DNA of 22,891 bases from a virus. Taxonomy: Duplodnaviria; Heunggongvirae; Uroviricota; Caudoviricetes. This document shows, piece after piece, positions 1,941 through 21,767 of this stretch. The translations under genes were made by a program, and so were the position numbers. Within the stretch, counting starts at the first letter, position 1. Every line of letters starts with the position of its first letter. The DNA lies in the IMG/VR virus record IMGVR_UViG_2713896907_000001, positions 1-22,891 of that record. One strand, given 5' to 3'. The notes beneath the pieces were generated by a model. The model was not told the DNA's origin. It did not search any database and saw only the letters and a program-made list of their open reading frames with translations.

Positions 1941-2567
1941 TCAATGAATCCATTCCTCGCCGCGAAGTTTTGCCAGCATTGGCTGAGCGTTCTTTACGAC
2001 AAAATTGTTGGTATCAAGATTCTTCATTTCACGAAGAAGTGATTTCTTGGTTTCTTCTGACATGTAGCGAGTCTCATATGCAATATCGTAAATCCTTCCT
2101 GAAAGCTCAGAACCAATTTGCTTCATTCCTGGGTAGATGTGTTTGCACATTTGTTGACTCTTCTCCATCCACAATTGTAAGTAGCAGAGATTAACCAGCT
2201 CTTCGTCAGTGAACTGTTTTGCAATCGGTGAGCATTCTGTCTGCCGATCCAAAATATCCAGCACCCAGCGGCGGAACTCTTTGGCTACCGGAGTGCGAGC
2301 AAACATCGCGATTAGGTGGGCACCGCGTAGTGAGAAAACTCGCACTTTTTTGCGATAATTTCCTGAGGTACTCACTTCGAGTACCTGAGTCATTCCGGCG
2401 CTAAACTCATCGCTATACTTGTTATAAATCATTGTTACTGCACGACTATTTGCGTATTTAAGTGCAGATGCAATATTAGATGATGTAAACCAAACACCAT
2501 GCATATCACGGGTGGGCACCAACTCAACTCCGTGGAAGTTGTAATCTGATTTTGCTACAATATTCAT
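1941..2567 (-). CDS. Antirepressor-like protein, N-terminal (BRO-N/Ant-N type) domain (ant1)
   Basis: Track ORF 1941..2651 would overlap arc; the likely start is ATG at 2567 (MNIVAKSDYNFHGVELVPTRDMHGVWFTSSNIASALKYANSRAVTMIYNKYSDEF...) with an AAGGAAA Shine-Dalgarno. It sits directly downstream of the Arc-like gene, as ant does in the P22 immI region. Confidence 0.55.
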   Translation of the reverse strand: MNIVAKSDYNFHGVELVPTRDMHGVWFTSSNIASALKYANSRAVTMIYNKYSDEFSAGMTQVLEVSTSGNYRKKVRVFSLRGAHLIAMFARTPVAKEFRRWVLDILDRQTECSPIAKQFTDEELVNLCYLQLWMEKSQQMCKHIYPGMKQIGSELSGRIYDIAYETRYMSEETKKSLLREMKNLDTNNFVVKNAQPMLAKLRGEEWIH

Positions 2568-2601
2568 GTTAGTTTCCTTGCATACGGTTACTGACATAGA
2601 G

Positions 2602-2645
2602 GCCCGGTTTGTGTTCGCGCACTGCCGGGCTTCACTATTTTTATT
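2602..2645 (+). terminator. Plus-strand hairpin plus U-rich tract in the arc-ant1 intergenic region (candidate sar-like terminator)
   Basis: GCCCGG (2602-2607) pairs with CCGGGC (2625-2630), with an inner GTG/CAC stem; followed by TTCACTATTTTTATT. Position matches where P22 sar RNA terminates, at the 3' end of arc. Confidence 0.4.
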
Positions 2646-2814
2646 GGGCATTATCTCTTTCCTCTCTCAGGCTTTTAGCCAGTCGCTGCACAATCGCAGA
2701 GTTGATAGAAATTCCATCCATTTCAGCAACACGTCTAATCTCCTCCTTCATTCGCGCTGGCAAACGAAGCTGGAAACTTTGACTTTTACGACCTGTGTAA
2801 AGCACATCTTTCAT
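2641..2814 (-). CDS. arc: Arc-like ribbon-helix-helix repressor
   Basis: From ATG at 2814 (GGGAGG Shine-Dalgarno 7 nt upstream): MKDVLYTGRKSQSFQLRLPARMKEEIRRVAEMDGISINSAIVQRLAKSLREERDNAQ. RHH pattern resembles remembered P22 Arc (PQFNLRWPREVLDLVRKVAEENGRSVNSEIYQRV); divergent from an Mnt-like gene and upstream of ant-like genes. Confidence 0.7.
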   Translation of the reverse strand: MKDVLYTGRKSQSFQLRLPARMKEEIRRVAEMDGISINSAIVQRLAKSLREERDNAQ

Positions 2815-18189: not shown

Positions 18190-18570
18190 CTACTGTTCGC
18201 TTAGCTTCTGCTTCAGCAAGTAACCTTCGAGCATCCAGATTTTGTTTACAGCATTTTGCCGGGCAATCTTCCGACCAATTTCTGCATCAAAGTTTTCCGG
18301 GCTTGCACAGGCACTCTCTCCGGTGACGGTGAAGCCATTCTTCAGCACCAGTACGCAGAAAGTGAGCAACTTCAATGGTGATAAATCACGATCGCCTTCT
18401 TCTGGTTTTTCCCTGCCACAATATTCGTTGCTGGAAATGGCACCATTTCGTCCATCATAAGCAGTAAAGTAATGCTCGCTTTTAATCACGTCTTCGATGT
18501 GCTGCGGGGTGATTCGCGGTGCCGTTTTGCCTTTCTCAACGATTTCTTTTTCGATTTGCTGGTCGTTCAT
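18190..18570 (-). CDS. Gp49 / Sf6 gene-66 family-like protein
   Basis: 126 aa; core LKLLTFCVLVLKNGFTVTGESACASPENFDAEIGRKIARQNAVNKIWMLEGYLL resembles the Phage_gp49_66 family as I recall it; located between the lysis and packaging modules as in Sf6-type genomes. Confidence 0.5.
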   Translation of the reverse strand: MNDQQIEKEIVEKGKTAPRITPQHIEDVIKSEHYFTAYDGRNGAISSNEYCGREKPEEGDRDLSPLKLLTFCVLVLKNGFTVTGESACASPENFDAEIGRKIARQNAVNKIWMLEGYLLKQKLSEQ

Positions 18571-18886: not shown

Positions 18887-19375
18887 TTAATAGCCATCAG
18901 AAGTAATCGCTACAGATTTCAATCCCTCAATGTCATCCTTGGACAGGGCGAACCATTCACCGTGCTTTCTCTTTGCGGCAAATTTGCGATGAAGCATGTT
19001 TTCAGTTTCTCTTCCACCAGGGATCAGGCACTCAAGCTTCAAGCAGTCTGGTCCAGAGTTGCCAAGCGATTTGATGCGTTGTGGAATGTTGGATGAATAC
19101 CCAATTTTGGTTAGCCCAGTTTTCTTCGATGACAAAACGTATACCTGAGGAGGTTCTTTTCTCTGGTCTTCCATTACACGTCTCATTGTTGCCATAAGTC
19201 CGCCGTGCATCAGCATTTCAACAAAGAACGCTGACCGAACACCTGACGACTTAAGCATGCCAGAAAATTCACTTGCCAATTCCATTAACTCTGCGATGTT
19301 TTCAGGAACTTTTTGGCAGTTATCTTCCTTGTATAAGGAAATCATTCTTTGAAGCTTTTCTTCTAATTGGTTCAT
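18887..19375 (-). CDS. T5orf172 (GIY-YIG-like) domain protein with short helical N-terminal region
   Basis: From ATG at 19375: MNQLEEKLQRM... The C-terminal part VYVLSSKKTGLTKIGYSSNIPQRIKSLGNSGPDCLKLECLIPGGRETENMLHRKFAAKRKHGEWFALSKDDIEGLK fits the T5orf172 pattern (hydrophobic-Y start, KIG, R..SL, GG.E.E..LH..F, GEWF). Confidence 0.6.
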   Translation of the reverse strand: MNQLEEKLQRMISLYKEDNCQKVPENIAELMELASEFSGMLKSSGVRSAFFVEMLMHGGLMATMRRVMEDQRKEPPQVYVLSSKKTGLTKIGYSSNIPQRIKSLGNSGPDCLKLECLIPGGRETENMLHRKFAAKRKHGEWFALSKDDIEGLKSVAITSDGY

Positions 19376-19524
19376 AGCGTCTTTACCTTTTAGAAAGTGA
19401 GCCTGTCTCACAGAAAAGCCGCCCCGAGATGGTCGCCACCATATACGGCAGTTCTCAGGCTCAACTTTCTGAAAGGCTCGGGTGATGTAATATGCGCGTG
19501 AGATGCGCTGTGAAATTCAGATGT

Positions 19525-19581: not shown

Positions 19582-20019
19582 TTATTTCAGGCATTGCGTC
19601 CTGATGTACTCCTGCAGGTAGTTAACCTGCGCGGTTATCCTGTCGATTCCACTTCGGAGACGGTAATAATTGAGTTCAGCATCTGCTGTAAGTCTTGGGC
19701 TTTCTCCATTGCCCATGCTGCTGGCTCCGGTCGTTGACTTTGCACAGGTGGCGGCGACTTGCAGGCGCTTACGACCAGCAGAAACATCAGCACGGAGACT
19801 TTCGATAGTCGCGTTAGCATCAGCAAGCTCCTTTGTGTATCTGGCGTCGAGTTCAGCTACATCACGTTGACGCTTCTGCATATCAGAGATGATAGATGTG
19901 GCTTTATCGCGCTGGTCTTTGTAGGCGATGGCGTTATCACGGTAATGATTAACAGCCCATGACAGGCAGACGATGATGCAGATAACCAGAGCGGAGATAA
20001 TCGCGGTTACTCTGTTCAT
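19582..20019 (-). CDS. Rz-like i-spanin
   Basis: From ATG at 20019, overlapping the endolysin stop (ATGA): [79 protein letters not shown]...; N-terminal transmembrane segment plus coiled-coil periplasmic domain; last gene of the lysis cassette. Confidence 0.8.
19635..19826 (-). CDS. Rz1-like o-spanin lipoprotein, embedded in Rz in another frame
   Basis: [42 protein letters not shown]...: signal peptide with lipobox VSAC and a proline-rich mature region, fully nested in the Rz gene; exact start uncertain. Confidence 0.6.
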
Positions 20020-20513
20020 TGCTGACCCCACAAACAGATTTCACGCTCAATCTCACGACGAGTCATGAGACCTTTCCATTGCTTACCGCCAGCGTATGTC
20101 CAGCGACGTAGCTGATCACATGCGCCTTTGATATCGCCCTGGTTTATTTTGCGAAGAAGCGTCGATGTTCTGAAATTGCCAGCGCCCACGTTGTAAACGA
20201 ACGAGTAAAGAGCGCCGCGCGTTGTTTCCGGTATATCAACTTTTATGTACGGGTTAATTTGTCTGGCGGCCGTGGCAAGGTCTTTATTCAGGAGGGCTTT
20301 GCATTCTGCTTCGGTATACGTTTTACCGGGAATGATGTCTTTTCCTGTATGCCCGTAACATACCGTCCATACACCAACTATGTCTTTGTAAGGATTATGT
20401 CTCACACCTTCCAGACCATCGTTACCACTTGGGCCAGTGATTAACACAGATGCTATGGCAATAGCCCCGCCACCAATAGCAGCAGCAACGGCTTTTCGTA
20501 ATGATGGAGGCAT
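20016..20513 (-). CDS. SAR endolysin (phage-21 R-type lysozyme)
   Basis: 165 aa; N-terminal weakly hydrophobic Gly/Ala-rich signal-anchor-release segment ([20 protein letters not shown]), then [23 protein letters not shown] with an E-8-D-5-T catalytic spacing; directly after the pinholin. Confidence 0.85.
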
Positions 20514-20728
20514 TATTCACCTCTCGCAGCCTTTCGTCTGTCTTCTCTGATTTTGAAATACAGATTTGTCAGATAAGTGAGAAAACCCAAGACAAGGCTT
20601 CCAAGCACTCCAATCGCAGCCCACTGTGACGGACTGACCTGATCCAACCACTGCAAAAACCAGTATCCCGCACTACCAGCAGATGTTCCGTAGGCAATGC
20701 CAGTTGAGATTTTGTCCATTGATTTCAT
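20513..20728 (-). CDS. Pinholin, phage-21 S21-type, with dual-start motif
   Basis: [71 protein letters not shown] matches remembered phage 21 S21; two in-frame Met codons (MKSM) consistent with antiholin/holin starts; strong GGAGG ribosome-binding site. Confidence 0.85.
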
Positions 20729-20779
20729 AGCAACGCCTCCGCCAGTAACGGATTGCGTAGTTCTTATATTGGGAAGGGG

Positions 20780-20839
20780 AAAAAAGAAGGCCGCAGCGTA
20801 ACTATCACTGATGAATTCAGGATAGCCAGTGGCTACGGC
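20780..20839 (-). terminator. Structured hairpin followed by a U-tract between the tRNA genes and the holin (candidate terminator or tRNA-like remnant)
   Basis: Minus strand GCCGTAGC ... GCTGCGGC forms an 8-bp closing stem (one G-U) around an internal CTATC/GATAG and CTGA/TCAG hairpin, followed by CTTCTTTTTT. Too short (about 54 nt) for a tRNA. Confidence 0.4.
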
Positions 20840-20846
20840 TCAGTTA

Positions 20847-20922
20847 TGGTGCTGGTTAACGGACTTGAACCGCTACCCATTCGCTTACAAGGCGACTGCT
20901 CTACCATTGGAGCTAAACCAGC
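20847..20922 (-). tRNA. tRNA-Thr (anticodon UGU)
   Basis: Minus strand GCTGGTTTAGCTCCAATGGTAGAGCAGTCGCCTTGTAAGCGAATGGGTAGCGGTTCAAGTCCGTTAACCAGCACCA folds as a 76-nt cloverleaf: perfect 7-bp acceptor and 4-bp D stem, anticodon loop CTTGTAA, T-loop TTCAAGT, encoded CCA. One G-A at the base of the anticodon stem. Confidence 0.75.
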
Positions 20923-20927
20923 ATATT

Positions 20928-21002
20928 TGGCGGGACAGCGTGGACTCGAACCACGATAAGAAGGTTAACAGCCTTCCGTAATGACCTTTATACGACTGAC
21001 CC
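20928..21002 (-). tRNA. tRNA-Asn-like (anticodon GUU), possibly slightly degenerate
   Basis: Minus strand GGGTCAGTCGTATAAAGGTCATTACGGAAGGCTGTTAACCTTCTTATCGTGGTTCGAGTCCACGCTGTCCCGCCA: perfect anticodon stem GAAGG/CCTTC, loop CTGTTAA, T-arm CGTGG-TTCGAGT-CCACG, encoded CCA. One U-U mismatch in the acceptor stem and a 3-bp D stem. Only 5 nt from tRNA-Thr. Confidence 0.55.
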
Positions 21003-21006
21003 AAAT

Positions 21007-21090
21007 AAAAAAAGCCACCGTTGCAACTTAAGAGTCACTAACGGCAGCTTATGCCAATAGTGTTGCTCATTTGCTCAATGATGTCAACAC
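21007..21090 (-). promoter_or_regulatory. Candidate Q-dependent late promoter region (pR'-like -35 TTGACA and a short hairpin plus U-tract leader) between Q and the tRNAs
   Basis: On the minus strand a perfect TTGACA (21087..21082) lies 7 nt after the Q stop. Downstream, CTGCCGTT...AACGGTGGC can pair and is followed by TTTTTTT (21013..21007), right before tRNA-Asn. No convincing -10 hexamer at 17-bp spacing, so the call is weak. Confidence 0.3.
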
Positions 21091-21093
21091 GTT

Positions 21094-21582
21094 CTATGCT
21101 ACATGTTTAATTTTCTCTACACGTTTCCGATTTTTAAACGCACTATCCAGAACCGGGTAAATCATAAACAACGAGGCATTAAGGATTTCGTCAACTTCCC
21201 GTCGACAGGTTGCGAGCGATGGTTTTTGAATGCGCCCGCCGCCACGGCATAACATCTTGCGAGGTCTTGCGACGCGATGATAGTAAGATGCAATGGCGTG
21301 CCTGGAAGAGCCATGAGCGTAGTAGCTGAGGAGGATTCCAAAGGCTTTTTTGTCAATGTACATGACGGAATCGACGACCTGAGAAATCAACATTCCATCA
21401 TCATCATTACACATTGGCCTTGTCATAACTCTTCCCGGCTCTACGCTCTCCATGAACTTCGCTATTACGCTGCTCATGCGCTTTTCCAGACGACCTGAAT
21501 AAACCCATGCGCCCCACAGTTCAAGCCAGCCATTCAGCCACTCGTGCTGTTCTTTGGTGAGGTTTAGTTCTCTTATGCTCAT
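21094..21582 (-). CDS. Putative late-gene antiterminator Q (phage 21/82 type), by position
   Basis: 162-aa ORF MSIRELNLTKEQHEWLNGWLELWGAWVYSGRLEKRM... between ninH and the late leader/lysis cassette, the invariant position of Q in lambdoid phages; start overlaps the ninH stop. Called by synteny, not by recognised sequence. Confidence 0.55.
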   Translation of the reverse strand: MSIRELNLTKEQHEWLNGWLELWGAWVYSGRLEKRMSSVIAKFMESVEPGRVMTRPMCNDDDGMLISQVVDSVMYIDKKAFGILLSYYAHGSSRHAIASYYHRVARPRKMLCRGGGRIQKPSLATCRREVDEILNASLFMIYPVLDSAFKNRKRVEKIKHVA

Positions 21583-21767
21583 CGTCTTCCTCTCTTGCCC
21601 TGTTTGACCATCAGGACGCCGTTAACTATTACGTGACGTTCGCCTTTGCTGTCTCGGTTGTACTTGAGCACTGTTCCTCTTGCACAGGAAAGCATCCTCG
21701 CCACTTCGGTCTGATTGCCTCGTGTCTGGATAAGAAGCTCTGGTATCGTTTGAATTGTGGCGTTCAT
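21579..21767 (-). CDS. ninH: NinH-like DNA-binding protein
   Basis: MNATIQTIPELLIQTRGNQTEVARMLSCARGTVLKYNRDSKGERHVIVNGVLMV... resembles remembered lambda NinH (MTFSVKTIPDMLVEAYGNQTEVARRLKCSRGTVRKYVDDKDGKMHAIVNDVLMV). Confidence 0.85.
   Translation of the reverse strand: MNATIQTIPELLIQTRGNQTEVARMLSCARGTVLKYNRDSKGERHVIVNGVLMVKQGKRGRR

Follow-up and report, generated by a model that had tools for sequence, protein, structure and literature searches.

The window analyzed here, a stretch of 22.9 kb of phage DNA, contains exactly two tRNA genes, tRNA-Asn(GUU) (21002..20928) and tRNA-Thr(UGU) (20922..20847). Both are on the minus strand, 5 nt apart, and are located between the Q antiterminator gene and the S21 pinholin gene, with a hairpin and a U tract flanking the pair on either side. 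The two genes, their spacing and their location had been read from the sequence in the first-pass annotation, and ARAGORN indeed calls both on the minus strand, each with an encoded CCA, while the matches to the Rfam tRNA family RF00005 reach 55-61 bits against a gathering score of 29. All genes and signals of the locus are on the minus strand, and the order of transcription is Q, pR', tR', Asn, Thr, hairpin, S:

21094..21582, minus strand: Q antiterminator gene of the phage 21 type, 162 aa (ORF; Pfam Phage_antitermQ, PF06530, 85.6 bits; the same as CPT_21_63, 'antiterminator', of OL657228.1)
21059..21087, minus strand: late promoter pR' with the Q-binding element (QBE), mapped from the phage 21 annotation onto the window, the sequences being identical
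21087..21082, 21079..21064 and 21064..21059, minus strand: pR' -35 element TTGACA, QBE ATTGAGCAAATGAGCA and -10 element AACACT, respectively (phage 21 mapping)
21052 and 21051..21045, minus strand: transcription start and sigma-dependent pause element TAAGCTG, respectively (positions transferred from phage 21, whose annotation refers to PMID 31663818)
21003..21050, minus strand: tR', the intrinsic terminator at which the short pR' leader RNA ends (a terminator in the phage 21 annotation, PMID 1704887, and also in phages L and Nil2)
20928..21002, minus strand: tRNA-Asn(GUU), 75 nt, CCA encoded (ARAGORN; RF00005, 55.3 bits)
20923..20927, minus strand: AAUAU spacer between the two tRNAs (sequence)
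20847..20922, minus strand: tRNA-Thr(UGU), 76 nt, CCA encoded (ARAGORN; RF00005, 61.5 bits)
20790..20839, minus strand: long imperfect hairpin, start of the lambdoid 'bsq3' boundary sequence (fold; homology to lambda; CUS-3 annotation 'bsq3; boundary sequence')
20776..20789, minus strand: U-rich tract CUUCUUUUUUCCCC 3' of the hairpin (comparison with phage 21, lambda, BTP1, HK629 and Kp6LV)
20513..20728, minus strand: S21 pinholin/antiholin gene with dual starts Met1 and Met4 (ORF; Pfam PF04971, P21 holin, 122 bits; phage 21 annotation)
20016..20513, minus strand: SAR endolysin R21 (ORF; Pfam Phage_lysozyme; phage 21 annotation)
19582..20031, minus strand: Rz i-spanin; the Rz1 o-spanin lies within it, at about 19635..19826 (ORFs; Pfam Phage_lysis; phage 21 annotation)

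The late region of phage 21 (GenBank OL657228.1, 39011-40081) is 99.1% identical to positions 20700-21120 of the window and has the same gene order. The -35 element, QBE, -10 element, pause element, terminator and both tRNAs are identical in the two phages, whereas the downstream hairpin differs by a few substitutions (CCUGA against CAUGA) and the tract by one fewer U. Elsewhere, the window consists of a virion module of the P22-like (CUS-3-like) kind, as opposed to the siphovirus module of phage 21. Thus, the region is probably a phage 21-type late-gene control region, and its carrier a P22-like (CUS-3-like) prophage or phage. Both tRNA genes are intact, head the late operon of a lambda-like prophage and have already been catalogued: the phage 21 record OL657228.1 has features for the two tRNAs as well as for pR', the start site, the pause element, the QBE (Yin et al. 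2019) and the terminator (PMID 1704887), the phage 21 genome has been screened previously with ARAGORN and tRNAscan-SE, and the tRNA pair has been described for Sf6, SfI, BTP1 and other phages.

The complete set of late control elements, namely a tandem QBE (ATTGAGCA / AATGAGCA), the -35 and -10 elements of pR', the pause element and a terminator, is present 3' of the Q21-family gene, and their sequences and spacing are identical to those in the OL657228.1 annotation. Judging from this identity, the hairpin upstream of tRNA-Asn is tR' as annotated in phage 21. It consists of a 17-bp hairpin followed by U7AU3 and abuts the tRNA-Asn gene without a spacer; the predicted fold of 21052..21003 has a dG of -20.2 kcal/mol (z -6.1), and none of 200 shuffled sequences was equally stable. 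A simple promoter and terminator scan of positions 20400-21700 called neither pR' nor a terminator at either of the two hairpins because its rules are stricter than the sites (-10 element AACACT; bulged or long stems). The same scan of the same interval, with the rules that also miss pR', found no separate promoter for the tRNAs beside pR'.

The matches of both tRNA genes to RF00005 are full-length (model positions 1-71 in the Infernal alignment), with E-values of 1e-12 for Thr and 5e-11 for Asn. The conserved tRNA elements that we checked (U8, G18-G19, U33, a purine at position 37 and the T-loop GTTCRA) are present in both, with U8, the GG within CAAUGGUA, the anticodon loop CUUGUAA and the T-loop segment GGUUCAAGUCC in tRNA-Thr, and U8, the GG within AAAGGUCA, the anticodon loop CUGUUAA and the T-loop segment GGUUCGAGUCC in tRNA-Asn. 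In E. coli, threonyl-tRNA synthetase recognizes G1-C72, C2-G71, G35 and U36, and asparaginyl-tRNA synthetase recognizes G34-U35-U36 and the discriminator G73. All the former are present in tRNA-Thr, with G1-C72 and C2-G71 invariant in the Thr family, and all the latter in tRNA-Asn, with G73 invariant in the Asn family. Deviations from regular pairing were flagged by Infernal in both molecules: G27·A43 reduces the anticodon stem of tRNA-Thr to 4 bp, and tRNA-Asn has an acceptor-stem U4·U69 and a U13·U22 that closes its D stem, which correspond to the acceptor mismatch and 3-bp D stem that had been noticed at first reading. The sequence of tRNA-Thr is identical to that of the phage 21 tRNA-Thr. 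In the Thr family (a small sample, n=7), 96% of the stem positions are paired, both-sides changes occur in 9 of the 21 pairs and none of 500 shuffles matched the covariation score; the Thr gene is under structural selection.

The hairpin downstream of the tRNAs (20839..20790) has a predicted dG of -27.7 kcal/mol (z -5.7; 0 of 200 shuffles equal) and is followed by CUUCUUUUUU, so that hairpins with U tracts on both sides of the pair, as originally described, are borne out. In the window and in phage 21, 8 U are found within 10 nt after the stem. The U tract is present only where the hairpin joins a 21-type lysis cassette, and lambda, BTP1, HK629 and Kp6LV have the hairpin without it. The hairpin element is 93% identical to lambda 44945-45003 and was found in 80 phage records; the homology indicates that it is a conserved lambdoid boundary sequence shared with lambda. 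Among six homologues, a single both-sides change was observed, a count reached by 88 of 500 shuffles in sequences too alike for covariation to decide. The alternative that positions 20780-20839 are a tRNA remnant, which had been raised in the first-pass annotation, was rejected: neither RF00005 at E<=10 nor ARAGORN yielded any match in positions 20400-21400 beyond the two genes, and the homologous lambda locus, examined with ARAGORN, contains no tRNA. Rfam searches of the flanks at E<=10 and of the lambda and CUS-3 leaders at E<=1 returned nothing beyond the two tRNAs and chance snoRNA hits.

Comparison with the boundary sequences of CUS-3 and with the tR'/6S RNA of lambda shows that the tR'-containing leader corresponds to bsq4 and that the downstream hairpin makes up the first ~60 nt of bsq3. 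Where the window has the two tRNAs, lambda, CUS-3 and HK629 have a non-tRNA segment of 165-230 nt, which in lambda is moderately structured (fold z -2.7). Sf6, SfI, BTP1 and other P22-like or lambdoid phages carry the same Asn/Thr module, 98-100% identical over window positions 21051..20785 (transcript start through the end of the boundary hairpin), but have a different Q and QBE upstream and mostly a lambda-type S downstream, in which case the hairpin is without the U tract. In other phages, too, a tRNA cassette separates tR' from the first late gene, but its content varies: Asn-Leu in L, Asn-Thr-Gly in JLK-2012, Asn-Phe-Thr-Arg in Mulock, and the ileZ-argN-argO cluster between Q and stx in Stx-converting phages. 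Nil2, with a Q21-type Q, retains only a 24-nt 5' remnant of the Asn gene.

Based on this arrangement, we infer the timing of expression and the processing route of the tRNA pair, with a probability of roughly 0.8 for the explanation as a whole. RNA polymerase would start at the constitutive pR' (21052) and pause at the sigma-dependent pause element. Without Q, it would stop at tR' (21050..21003), yielding only a leader RNA of ~50 nt; with Q21 bound to the QBE, it would become terminator-resistant and read through tR', both tRNAs and the boundary hairpin with its U tract into S21, R21, Rz/Rz1 and the virion genes. The tRNAs would then be excised from the 5' region of the late transcript, the 5' ends by host RNase P and the 3' ends through trimming by RNase E and exonucleases, and no CCA addition would be needed because CCA is encoded in both genes. 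The position of tR' upstream of the tRNAs and the lack of a separate promoter in the simple scan fit expression restricted to the late phase.

Such a restriction may, however, be too strict. The RNA-seq paper on the BTP1 lysogen lists both tRNA genes separately, beside five genes with TPM >100, a wording which suggests that the tRNAs are abundant in lysogenic cultures as well; the supplements of that paper, searched for TPM values of the two tRNAs, tabulate none. The alternative is that the tRNAs act in the lysogen as well, with leak-through of tR' from the constitutive pR' transcribing both genes and ending at the second hairpin and U tract. The hairpin and U tract 3' of the tRNAs in the 21-type arrangement, the annotation of terminators on both sides of the tRNAs in phage L, the separate mention of the tRNA genes where the genes above 100 TPM in BTP1 lysogenic cultures are listed and the transcriptional signal reported near the tRNAs for the Kapi1 and BTP1 lysogens are all compatible with this possibility. 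Nevertheless, tR', with its 17-bp stem and U7 run, looks strong, BTP1, lambda and HK629 have no downstream U tract, so a two-terminator unit is not general, and BTP1 induces spontaneously in ~0.2% of cells, so that, the tRNAs being stable, the bulk signal may stem from induced cells. Leak-through expression in the lysogen therefore appears possible but unlikely, and the same doubtful standing applies to a small constitutive pR'-tRNA-tRNA-terminator unit that would benefit the lysogen.

Under the explanation favored here, in which the pair is made with the late transcript, the tRNAs would add decoding of ACA (and ACG) as well as AAC/AAU in late protein synthesis. The comparison of late-gene codon usage with that of the host, proposed for both ACA and AAC, gave a divided answer. 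ACA makes up 15.2 of every 1000 late-gene codons, compared with 5.4 of every 1000 in a set of 42 K-12 genes (odds ratio 2.8, p 7e-11). Asn codons taken together amount to 49.7 per 1000 against 37.6 in the K-12 genes, but the share of AAC among them is not raised (56% in late genes against 63% in K-12). The paper on SfI reported the same ACA bias and saw no Asn bias, and, given these observations, codon supply explains tRNA-Thr better than tRNA-Asn. In the coat gene of phage L, 24 of the 25 Asn codons are AAC. A first purpose of the pair would thus be the supply of a tRNA for ACA, which is rare in the host, and this would be compatible with a second one.

The second purpose would be to provide tRNA copies that differ from those of the host in the anticodon stem, where Toprim tRNases cut, such that the phage tRNA-Thr(UGU), and possibly tRNA-Asn(GUU), replaces a host tRNA destroyed by P2 OLD or PARIS AriB. 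P2 OLD is lethal because it cuts the paired CNG motifs within the anticodon stem of host tRNA-Thr(UGU), and the tRNA-Thr(UGU) of phage 21 rescues cells from this toxicity by replacing the destroyed host tRNA (PMC12445682, 2025). AriB cuts the tRNAs for Lys(UUU), for Thr(UGU) and for Asn(GUU) between nucleotides 40 and 41, after the motif UAAUC, with tRNA-Lys(UUU) as the main target, and the Lys tRNA of T5 belongs to every published rescuing set (PMC12409363). Both tRNAs of the window have the anticodon of a host tRNA that is attacked, and both carry changes where the nuclease recognizes or cuts the host molecule. Where the host tRNA-Thr has C28-U29-G30 / C40-A41-G42, the phage tRNA-Thr has U28-C29-G30 / C40-G41-A42, and its stem is shorter owing to G27·A43; positions 39 and 41 are G39/G41 as opposed to host U39/A41 in tRNA-Thr, and C39/U41 as opposed to host U39/C41 in tRNA-Asn. 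The Lys/Thr/Asn variants of T5, directed against PARIS AriB, and the phage Thr(UGU) variants, directed against P2 OLD, share with this pair the anticodons UGU (Thr) and GUU (Asn) and the anticodon-stem changes at or next to the cleavage sites. Unlike nuclease-resistant tRNAs such as those of T5, the present pair belongs to a temperate phage, is located in a late leader, as opposed to a lytic phage's large tRNA cluster, and is not accompanied by a tRNA-Lys(UUU), which this phage does not encode. Since AriB mainly attacks tRNA-Lys(UUU) and T5 Lys is part of every rescuing set, Asn and Thr are unlikely to neutralize that PARIS system alone. The P1 Asn tRNA retains the UAAUCA motif, and hence evasion of AriB is not general among phage Asn tRNAs. 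As far as the motifs go, tRNA-Asn possibly contributes to defence evasion and tRNA-Thr possibly resists AriB. Because a published anti-OLD function exists for an identical Thr tRNA, the value of this locus is that of a worked example more than of a discovery.

These data bear on the simpler proposal that the tRNAs solely decode codons preferred by the phage and have nothing to do with tRNases of the host or of prophages. The 2.8-fold enrichment of ACA, shared by SfI, and the AAC preference in the phage L coat gene agree with it, but it leaves aside the protection against P2 OLD by the identical phage 21 tRNA and the anticodon-stem oddities that fit the published resistance mechanism, as well as the Asn codon choice without a shift towards AAC. 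Furthermore, an overall composition bias does not predict that Asn and Thr are again found paired in P1, N4-like phages and Cyrano, where the Asn tRNA is of an unrelated lineage. We therefore regard codon supply as the sole role as quite unlikely.

Going further than the dual role favored here, one could propose that Asn(GUU) and Thr(UGU) form a matched counter-defence cassette rather than a codon-bias supplement, with an Asn variant that resists cleavage, apparent imperfections that are resistance mutations, and leak-through of tR' that hardens the lysogen too. The basis of this tentative and, on balance, improbable extension is that both anticodons are those of targets of Toprim tRNases of competing prophages or satellites (P2 OLD, PARIS AriB), that the anticodon stems of both copies are changed at positions 39 and 41, and that the pairing was assembled independently, with unrelated Asn lineages, in lambdoids, P1, N4-like phages and Cyrano.

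The acceptor mismatch and the 3-bp D stem of tRNA-Asn led to the suspicion in the first-pass annotation that this gene is a variant or decaying copy. The two non-standard pairs flagged by Infernal and a sequence that on its own folds only marginally better than shuffles (z -1.7) are in line with a decaying or non-functional copy. Several observations speak against decay. The gene scores 55.3 bits, well clear of the cutoff of 29, and its sequence is identical among phages 21, L, JLK-2012 and BTP1. In the Klebsiella phages Mulock and 2b LV-2017, both-sides compensatory changes are found at 6-67, 7-66 and 28-42 while U4·U69 is retained; the T4-like and Erwinia relatives have a U-G wobble pair at 4-69, and U13·U22 is invariant in all five members of the Asn family, including the T4-like and Erwinia jumbo-phage relatives. 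Within this family (likewise a small sample, n=5), 92% of the cells are paired, both-sides changes occur in 9 of the 21 pairs and none of 500 shuffles matched the covariation score; like its neighbor, the Asn gene is under structural selection. A T-stem mismatch is also present in the host thrU. A phage tRNA with mismatches is not necessarily in decay, and at least one of those seen here, G27·A43 of tRNA-Thr, belongs to a known nuclease-resistance mechanism. A decaying Asn copy is, accordingly, very improbable.

Finally, although tRNA genes such as thrW serve as integration sites for many lambdoid and P22-like phages, the idea that integration left both sequences behind as fragments of host tRNAs (attachment-site scars) is practically untenable, given that both genes are full length with CCA, lie internally between Q and S and not at a prophage end, are only 72% (Thr against K-12 thrU) and 63% (Asn against K-12 asnT) identical to the host isoacceptors, and are present in free phage genomes. 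As to their distribution, a BLAST search with host thrU found Thr(UGU)-like genes in >1000 phage records, and at least 80% of the tRNA module is carried by 344 of 5426 complete E. coli genomes; in the E. coli genomes listed, RefSeq labels the two genes tRNA-Thr and tRNA-Asn.

Over 20700-21120 the window shares 99.1% identity with Escherichia phage 21 (OL657228.1), a record annotated successively with a Q antiterminator, a pR' -35 element, a tandem Q-binding element (QBE; ATTGAGCA/AATGAGCA, Yin et al. 2019), the -10 element, the late transcription start, a sigma-dependent pause element, a terminator (credited to PMID 1704887), tRNA-Asn and tRNA-Thr, and the dual-start S21. The window is identical at every one of these annotated elements, both tRNAs included, so that pR', QBE, the pause element and tR' are shown, by sequence identity, to be those of phage 21. 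All relevant features are on the minus strand.

Late-region features of the window (promoter, pause and terminator elements mapped from the phage 21 annotation at identical sequence; tRNAs predicted by ARAGORN)
21582..21094, minus strand, Q antiterminator, 162 aa (PF06530), upstream of the tRNAs
21087..21082, minus strand, pR' -35 element
21079..21064, minus strand, QBE
21064..21059, minus strand, pR' -10 element
21052, minus strand, late transcription start
21051..21045, minus strand, sigma-dependent pause element
21050..21003, minus strand, terminator tR'
21002..20928, minus strand, tRNA-Asn(gtt), 3' CCA encoded
20922..20847, minus strand, tRNA-Thr(tgt), 3' CCA encoded
20728..20513, minus strand, phage 21 pinholin S (PF04971), downstream of the tRNAs, as are the lysozyme and Rz genes

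These are the only two tRNA genes detected by ARAGORN across the window; they are separated by AAUAU, and both are full-length tRNA matches in an Infernal search against Rfam (55.3 bits for tRNA-Asn and 61.5 bits for tRNA-Thr; gathering score, 29). Infernal marks non-standard pairs in tRNA-Asn (U4·U69, U13·U22) and in tRNA-Thr (G27·A43). The pair is bracketed by hairpins at 21052..21003 (-20.2 kcal/mol, z -6.1 vs shuffled sequences; followed by U7AU3) and 20839..20790 (-27.7 kcal/mol, z -5.7; followed by CUUCUUUUUU). The first-pass annotation, which placed two tRNA genes with a hairpin on each side between Q and the holin, is correct in all these details according to ARAGORN, Infernal and folding, except that it left the strand unstated; its observation is confirmed, and its interpretation holds in part.

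The pair has been described and annotated before, and a function has been published for one of its members. In the phage 21 genome paper, ARAGORN and tRNAscan-SE gave two tRNA genes; the SfI paper places the same Asn(GUU)/Thr(UGU) tandem after Q and notes it also in Sf6, ST64T, PS3 and phage 21; and in the phage L paper the late operon of P22-like phages is described as having tRNAs at its 5' end. Of 5426 complete E. coli genomes, 344 contain 80% or more of the module, and in those listed RefSeq labels the two genes tRNA-Thr and tRNA-Asn. The remainder of the window matches a P22-like, CUS-3-like virion module (coverage 66%, identity 95%); the window is thus, judged from sequence, a mosaic, a phage or prophage in which the late-control and lysis cassette is of the 21 type.

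By its match to phage 21, the upstream hairpin is identified as tR', which abuts tRNA-Asn with no spacer; the leader and tR' are common to BTP1, L and CUS-3, in which Q and QBE are different, and to the Stx phage Nil2. Without Q, a short leader RNA from the constitutive pR' ends at tR'. Given the established Q mechanism, Q21 would load at the paused complex, and the polymerase would then continue past tR', through the tRNA pair and the second hairpin, and transcribe the lysis and virion genes. As in general tRNA biology, RNase P, RNase E and exonucleases would excise the tRNAs, which stand at the 5' end of the late transcript; CCA, being encoded, would not need to be added. A simple promoter scan of 20400-21700, the strict rules of which also missed pR' and both terminators, found no promoter-like site between tR' and the tRNAs. 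In a study of BTP1 lysogens, where ~0.2% of cells induce spontaneously, five genes are above TPM 100 'excluding the two tRNA genes' and the lytic operon is said to start 'directly after' them; TPM values for the two genes are not tabulated in that study. Its wording on the five genes suggests that the tRNA signal is abundant in BTP1 lysogenic cultures. RNA-seq papers also mention, for BTP1, a transcript signal in the interval from the tRNAs to the holin gene and, for Kapi1, signal antisense to the tRNAs (PMC12922286).

The published function is defence evasion by tRNA-Thr. P2 OLD, classically responsible for P2-lambda interference, is lethal because it cleaves the tRNA-Thr(UGU) of the host where CNG motifs pair in the anticodon stem (PMC12445682). 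In the same paper, cells are rescued by phage Thr(UGU) tRNAs, and the phage 21 tRNA-Thr, which has a shortened anticodon stem with altered pairs at both cleavage sites, is protective too. A preprint on OLD is concordant. Since the window gene has the same sequence as this protective tRNA-Thr, its G27·A43 'imperfection' is, by this identity, part of the OLD resistance mechanism. Thr tRNAs are also cleaved by Gifsy-1 HepS. The PARIS nuclease AriB cuts Lys(UUU), Thr(UGU) and, more weakly, Asn(GUU) tRNAs between positions 40 and 41, after UAAUC, and PARIS is neutralised when the T5 variants of these three tRNAs are combined (PMC12409363). The window tRNAs differ from those of the host at this site (G39/G41 vs U39/A41 in tRNA-Thr; C39/U41 vs U39/C41 in tRNA-Asn). 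A full anti-PARIS role of the pair is nevertheless disfavoured, because the window phage has no Lys(UUU) tRNA, the published rescuing sets all contained the T5 Lys tRNA (PMC12409363), and P1 tRNA-Asn keeps UAAUCA. In P1 (locus L017 125-278) the Asn(GUU) and Thr(UGU) genes stand side by side; in N4-like phages (L016 37-286) and Cyrano (L010 373-620) they share a cluster. The Asn genes of these phages belong to another lineage (59-65% identical to the window gene), so that the recurrent pairing favours selection on the Asn/Thr pair as such.

Another candidate role of the tRNAs is codon supply. In the codon-usage comparison proposed in the first-pass annotation, with 42 K-12 genes as the reference, ACA reaches 15.2 per 1000 codons in the late genes vs 5.4 (odds ratio 2.8, p 7e-11), and total Asn codons are enriched 1.3 times; the AAC share of Asn codons is not raised. 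A report on codon bias in SfI agrees with this.

The suggestion that tRNA-Asn is decaying does not survive comparison. Its sequence is identical across phages 21, L, JLK-2012 and BTP1, and the homologues in the Klebsiella phages Mulock and 2b LV-2017 carry both-sides compensatory changes (6-67 A-U to G-C, 7-66 G-C to A-U, 28-42 A-U to C-G) while retaining U4·U69. Farther off in this lineage, the genes of a T4-like phage and an Erwinia jumbo phage have U4-G69, which indicates that U4·U69 derives from a wobble pair, and share the D arm with U13·U22. In the Asn family, 92% of cells are paired and 9 of 21 pairs changed on both sides (n=5 sequences; covariation score reached by 0 of 500 shuffles), and in the Thr family 96% and 9 of 21 (n=7); with so few sequences, and related ones, these figures lend support but are no formal test. 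A T-stem mismatch occurs even in host thrU, so one mismatch is no sign of decay. The AsnRS (G34-U35-U36, G73) and ThrRS (G1-C72, C2-G71, G35, U36) determinants are all present in the respective tRNAs. Attachment-site scars are rejected, because the genes lie inside the phage and are just 63% (tRNA-Asn to asnT) and 72% (tRNA-Thr to thrU) identical to those of K-12.

The element at 20780-20839, proposed to be a terminator or a tRNA remnant, resembles an intrinsic terminator in the window; the remnant is rejected, given no tRNA match in Rfam even at E<=10 and a close homologue in lambda. This homologue (44945-45003; L003 601-659), 93% identical, is located between tR' and S, and in CUS-3 the hairpin starts a feature labelled 'bsq3; boundary sequence' (L020 899-1139), its sole annotation; it has no Rfam family. 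The ~50-nt hairpin (20785-20846, minus strand) is 93-100% identical in 80 lambdoid or P22-like phage records, whatever its neighbours, and likeness to other phages ends at 20785, right past it. A U tract is present only where the hairpin joins a 21-type S leader, whereas lambda, BTP1, HK629 and Kp6LV have a UUCUACAC-type sequence instead; the conserved part is thus the hairpin, not the terminator. Its covariation is sparse, at one both-sides change, a count reached by 88 of 500 shuffles.

Between tR' and this hairpin, lambda, CUS-3 and HK629 have a 165-230-nt non-tRNA segment, in the exact place of which the window, phage 21 and BTP1 have the two tRNAs. The segment is conserved (lambda L003 441-600; L020, L011, L018) and contains a long inverted repeat, CACAACAGGTAAGAGCA ... 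TGCTCTTTCCGTTGTG (fold z-score -2.7). Where the window has Asn-Thr, phage L has Asn-Leu, JLK-2012 Asn-Thr-Gly, Mulock Asn-Phe-Thr-Arg and Stx phages Ile-Arg-Arg. Nil2 (AJ413274.1; L005 751-774) has just the first 24 nt of tRNA-Asn, GGGTCAATCGTATAAAGGTCATTA, right past the same tR', then an insertion annotated as IS285-like, ileZ-argN-argO and stx2A; the piece looks like a truncated Asn-gene remnant in Q21-type Stx phages. The JLK-2012 tRNA-Thr (L008 630-705) is identical to the phage type over its first 26 nt and host thrU-like in the remainder, anticodon stem included, and looks chimeric, as would result from recombination between a phage gene and a host gene. The phage L gene annotated as tRNA-Leu(UAA) (L004 529-600) is only 72 nt long, with an odd anticodon arm and with 5' (GCTGGTTTAGCTC) and 3' ends common to the Thr tRNA; it may be a Thr-gene derivative, not a normal Leu tRNA.

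Elsewhere in the window, a 174-aa ORF with MUG113/T5orf172 domains (18887-19411, minus strand), flanked by the Rz spanin gene and an N4 gp49/Sf6 gp66-family gene (18190-18570), appears to be an accessory gene that was inserted into the late operon. Near the left end, an ORF at 1941-2651 (minus strand) combines Bro-N and P22 antirepressor C-terminal domains (Ant-like).
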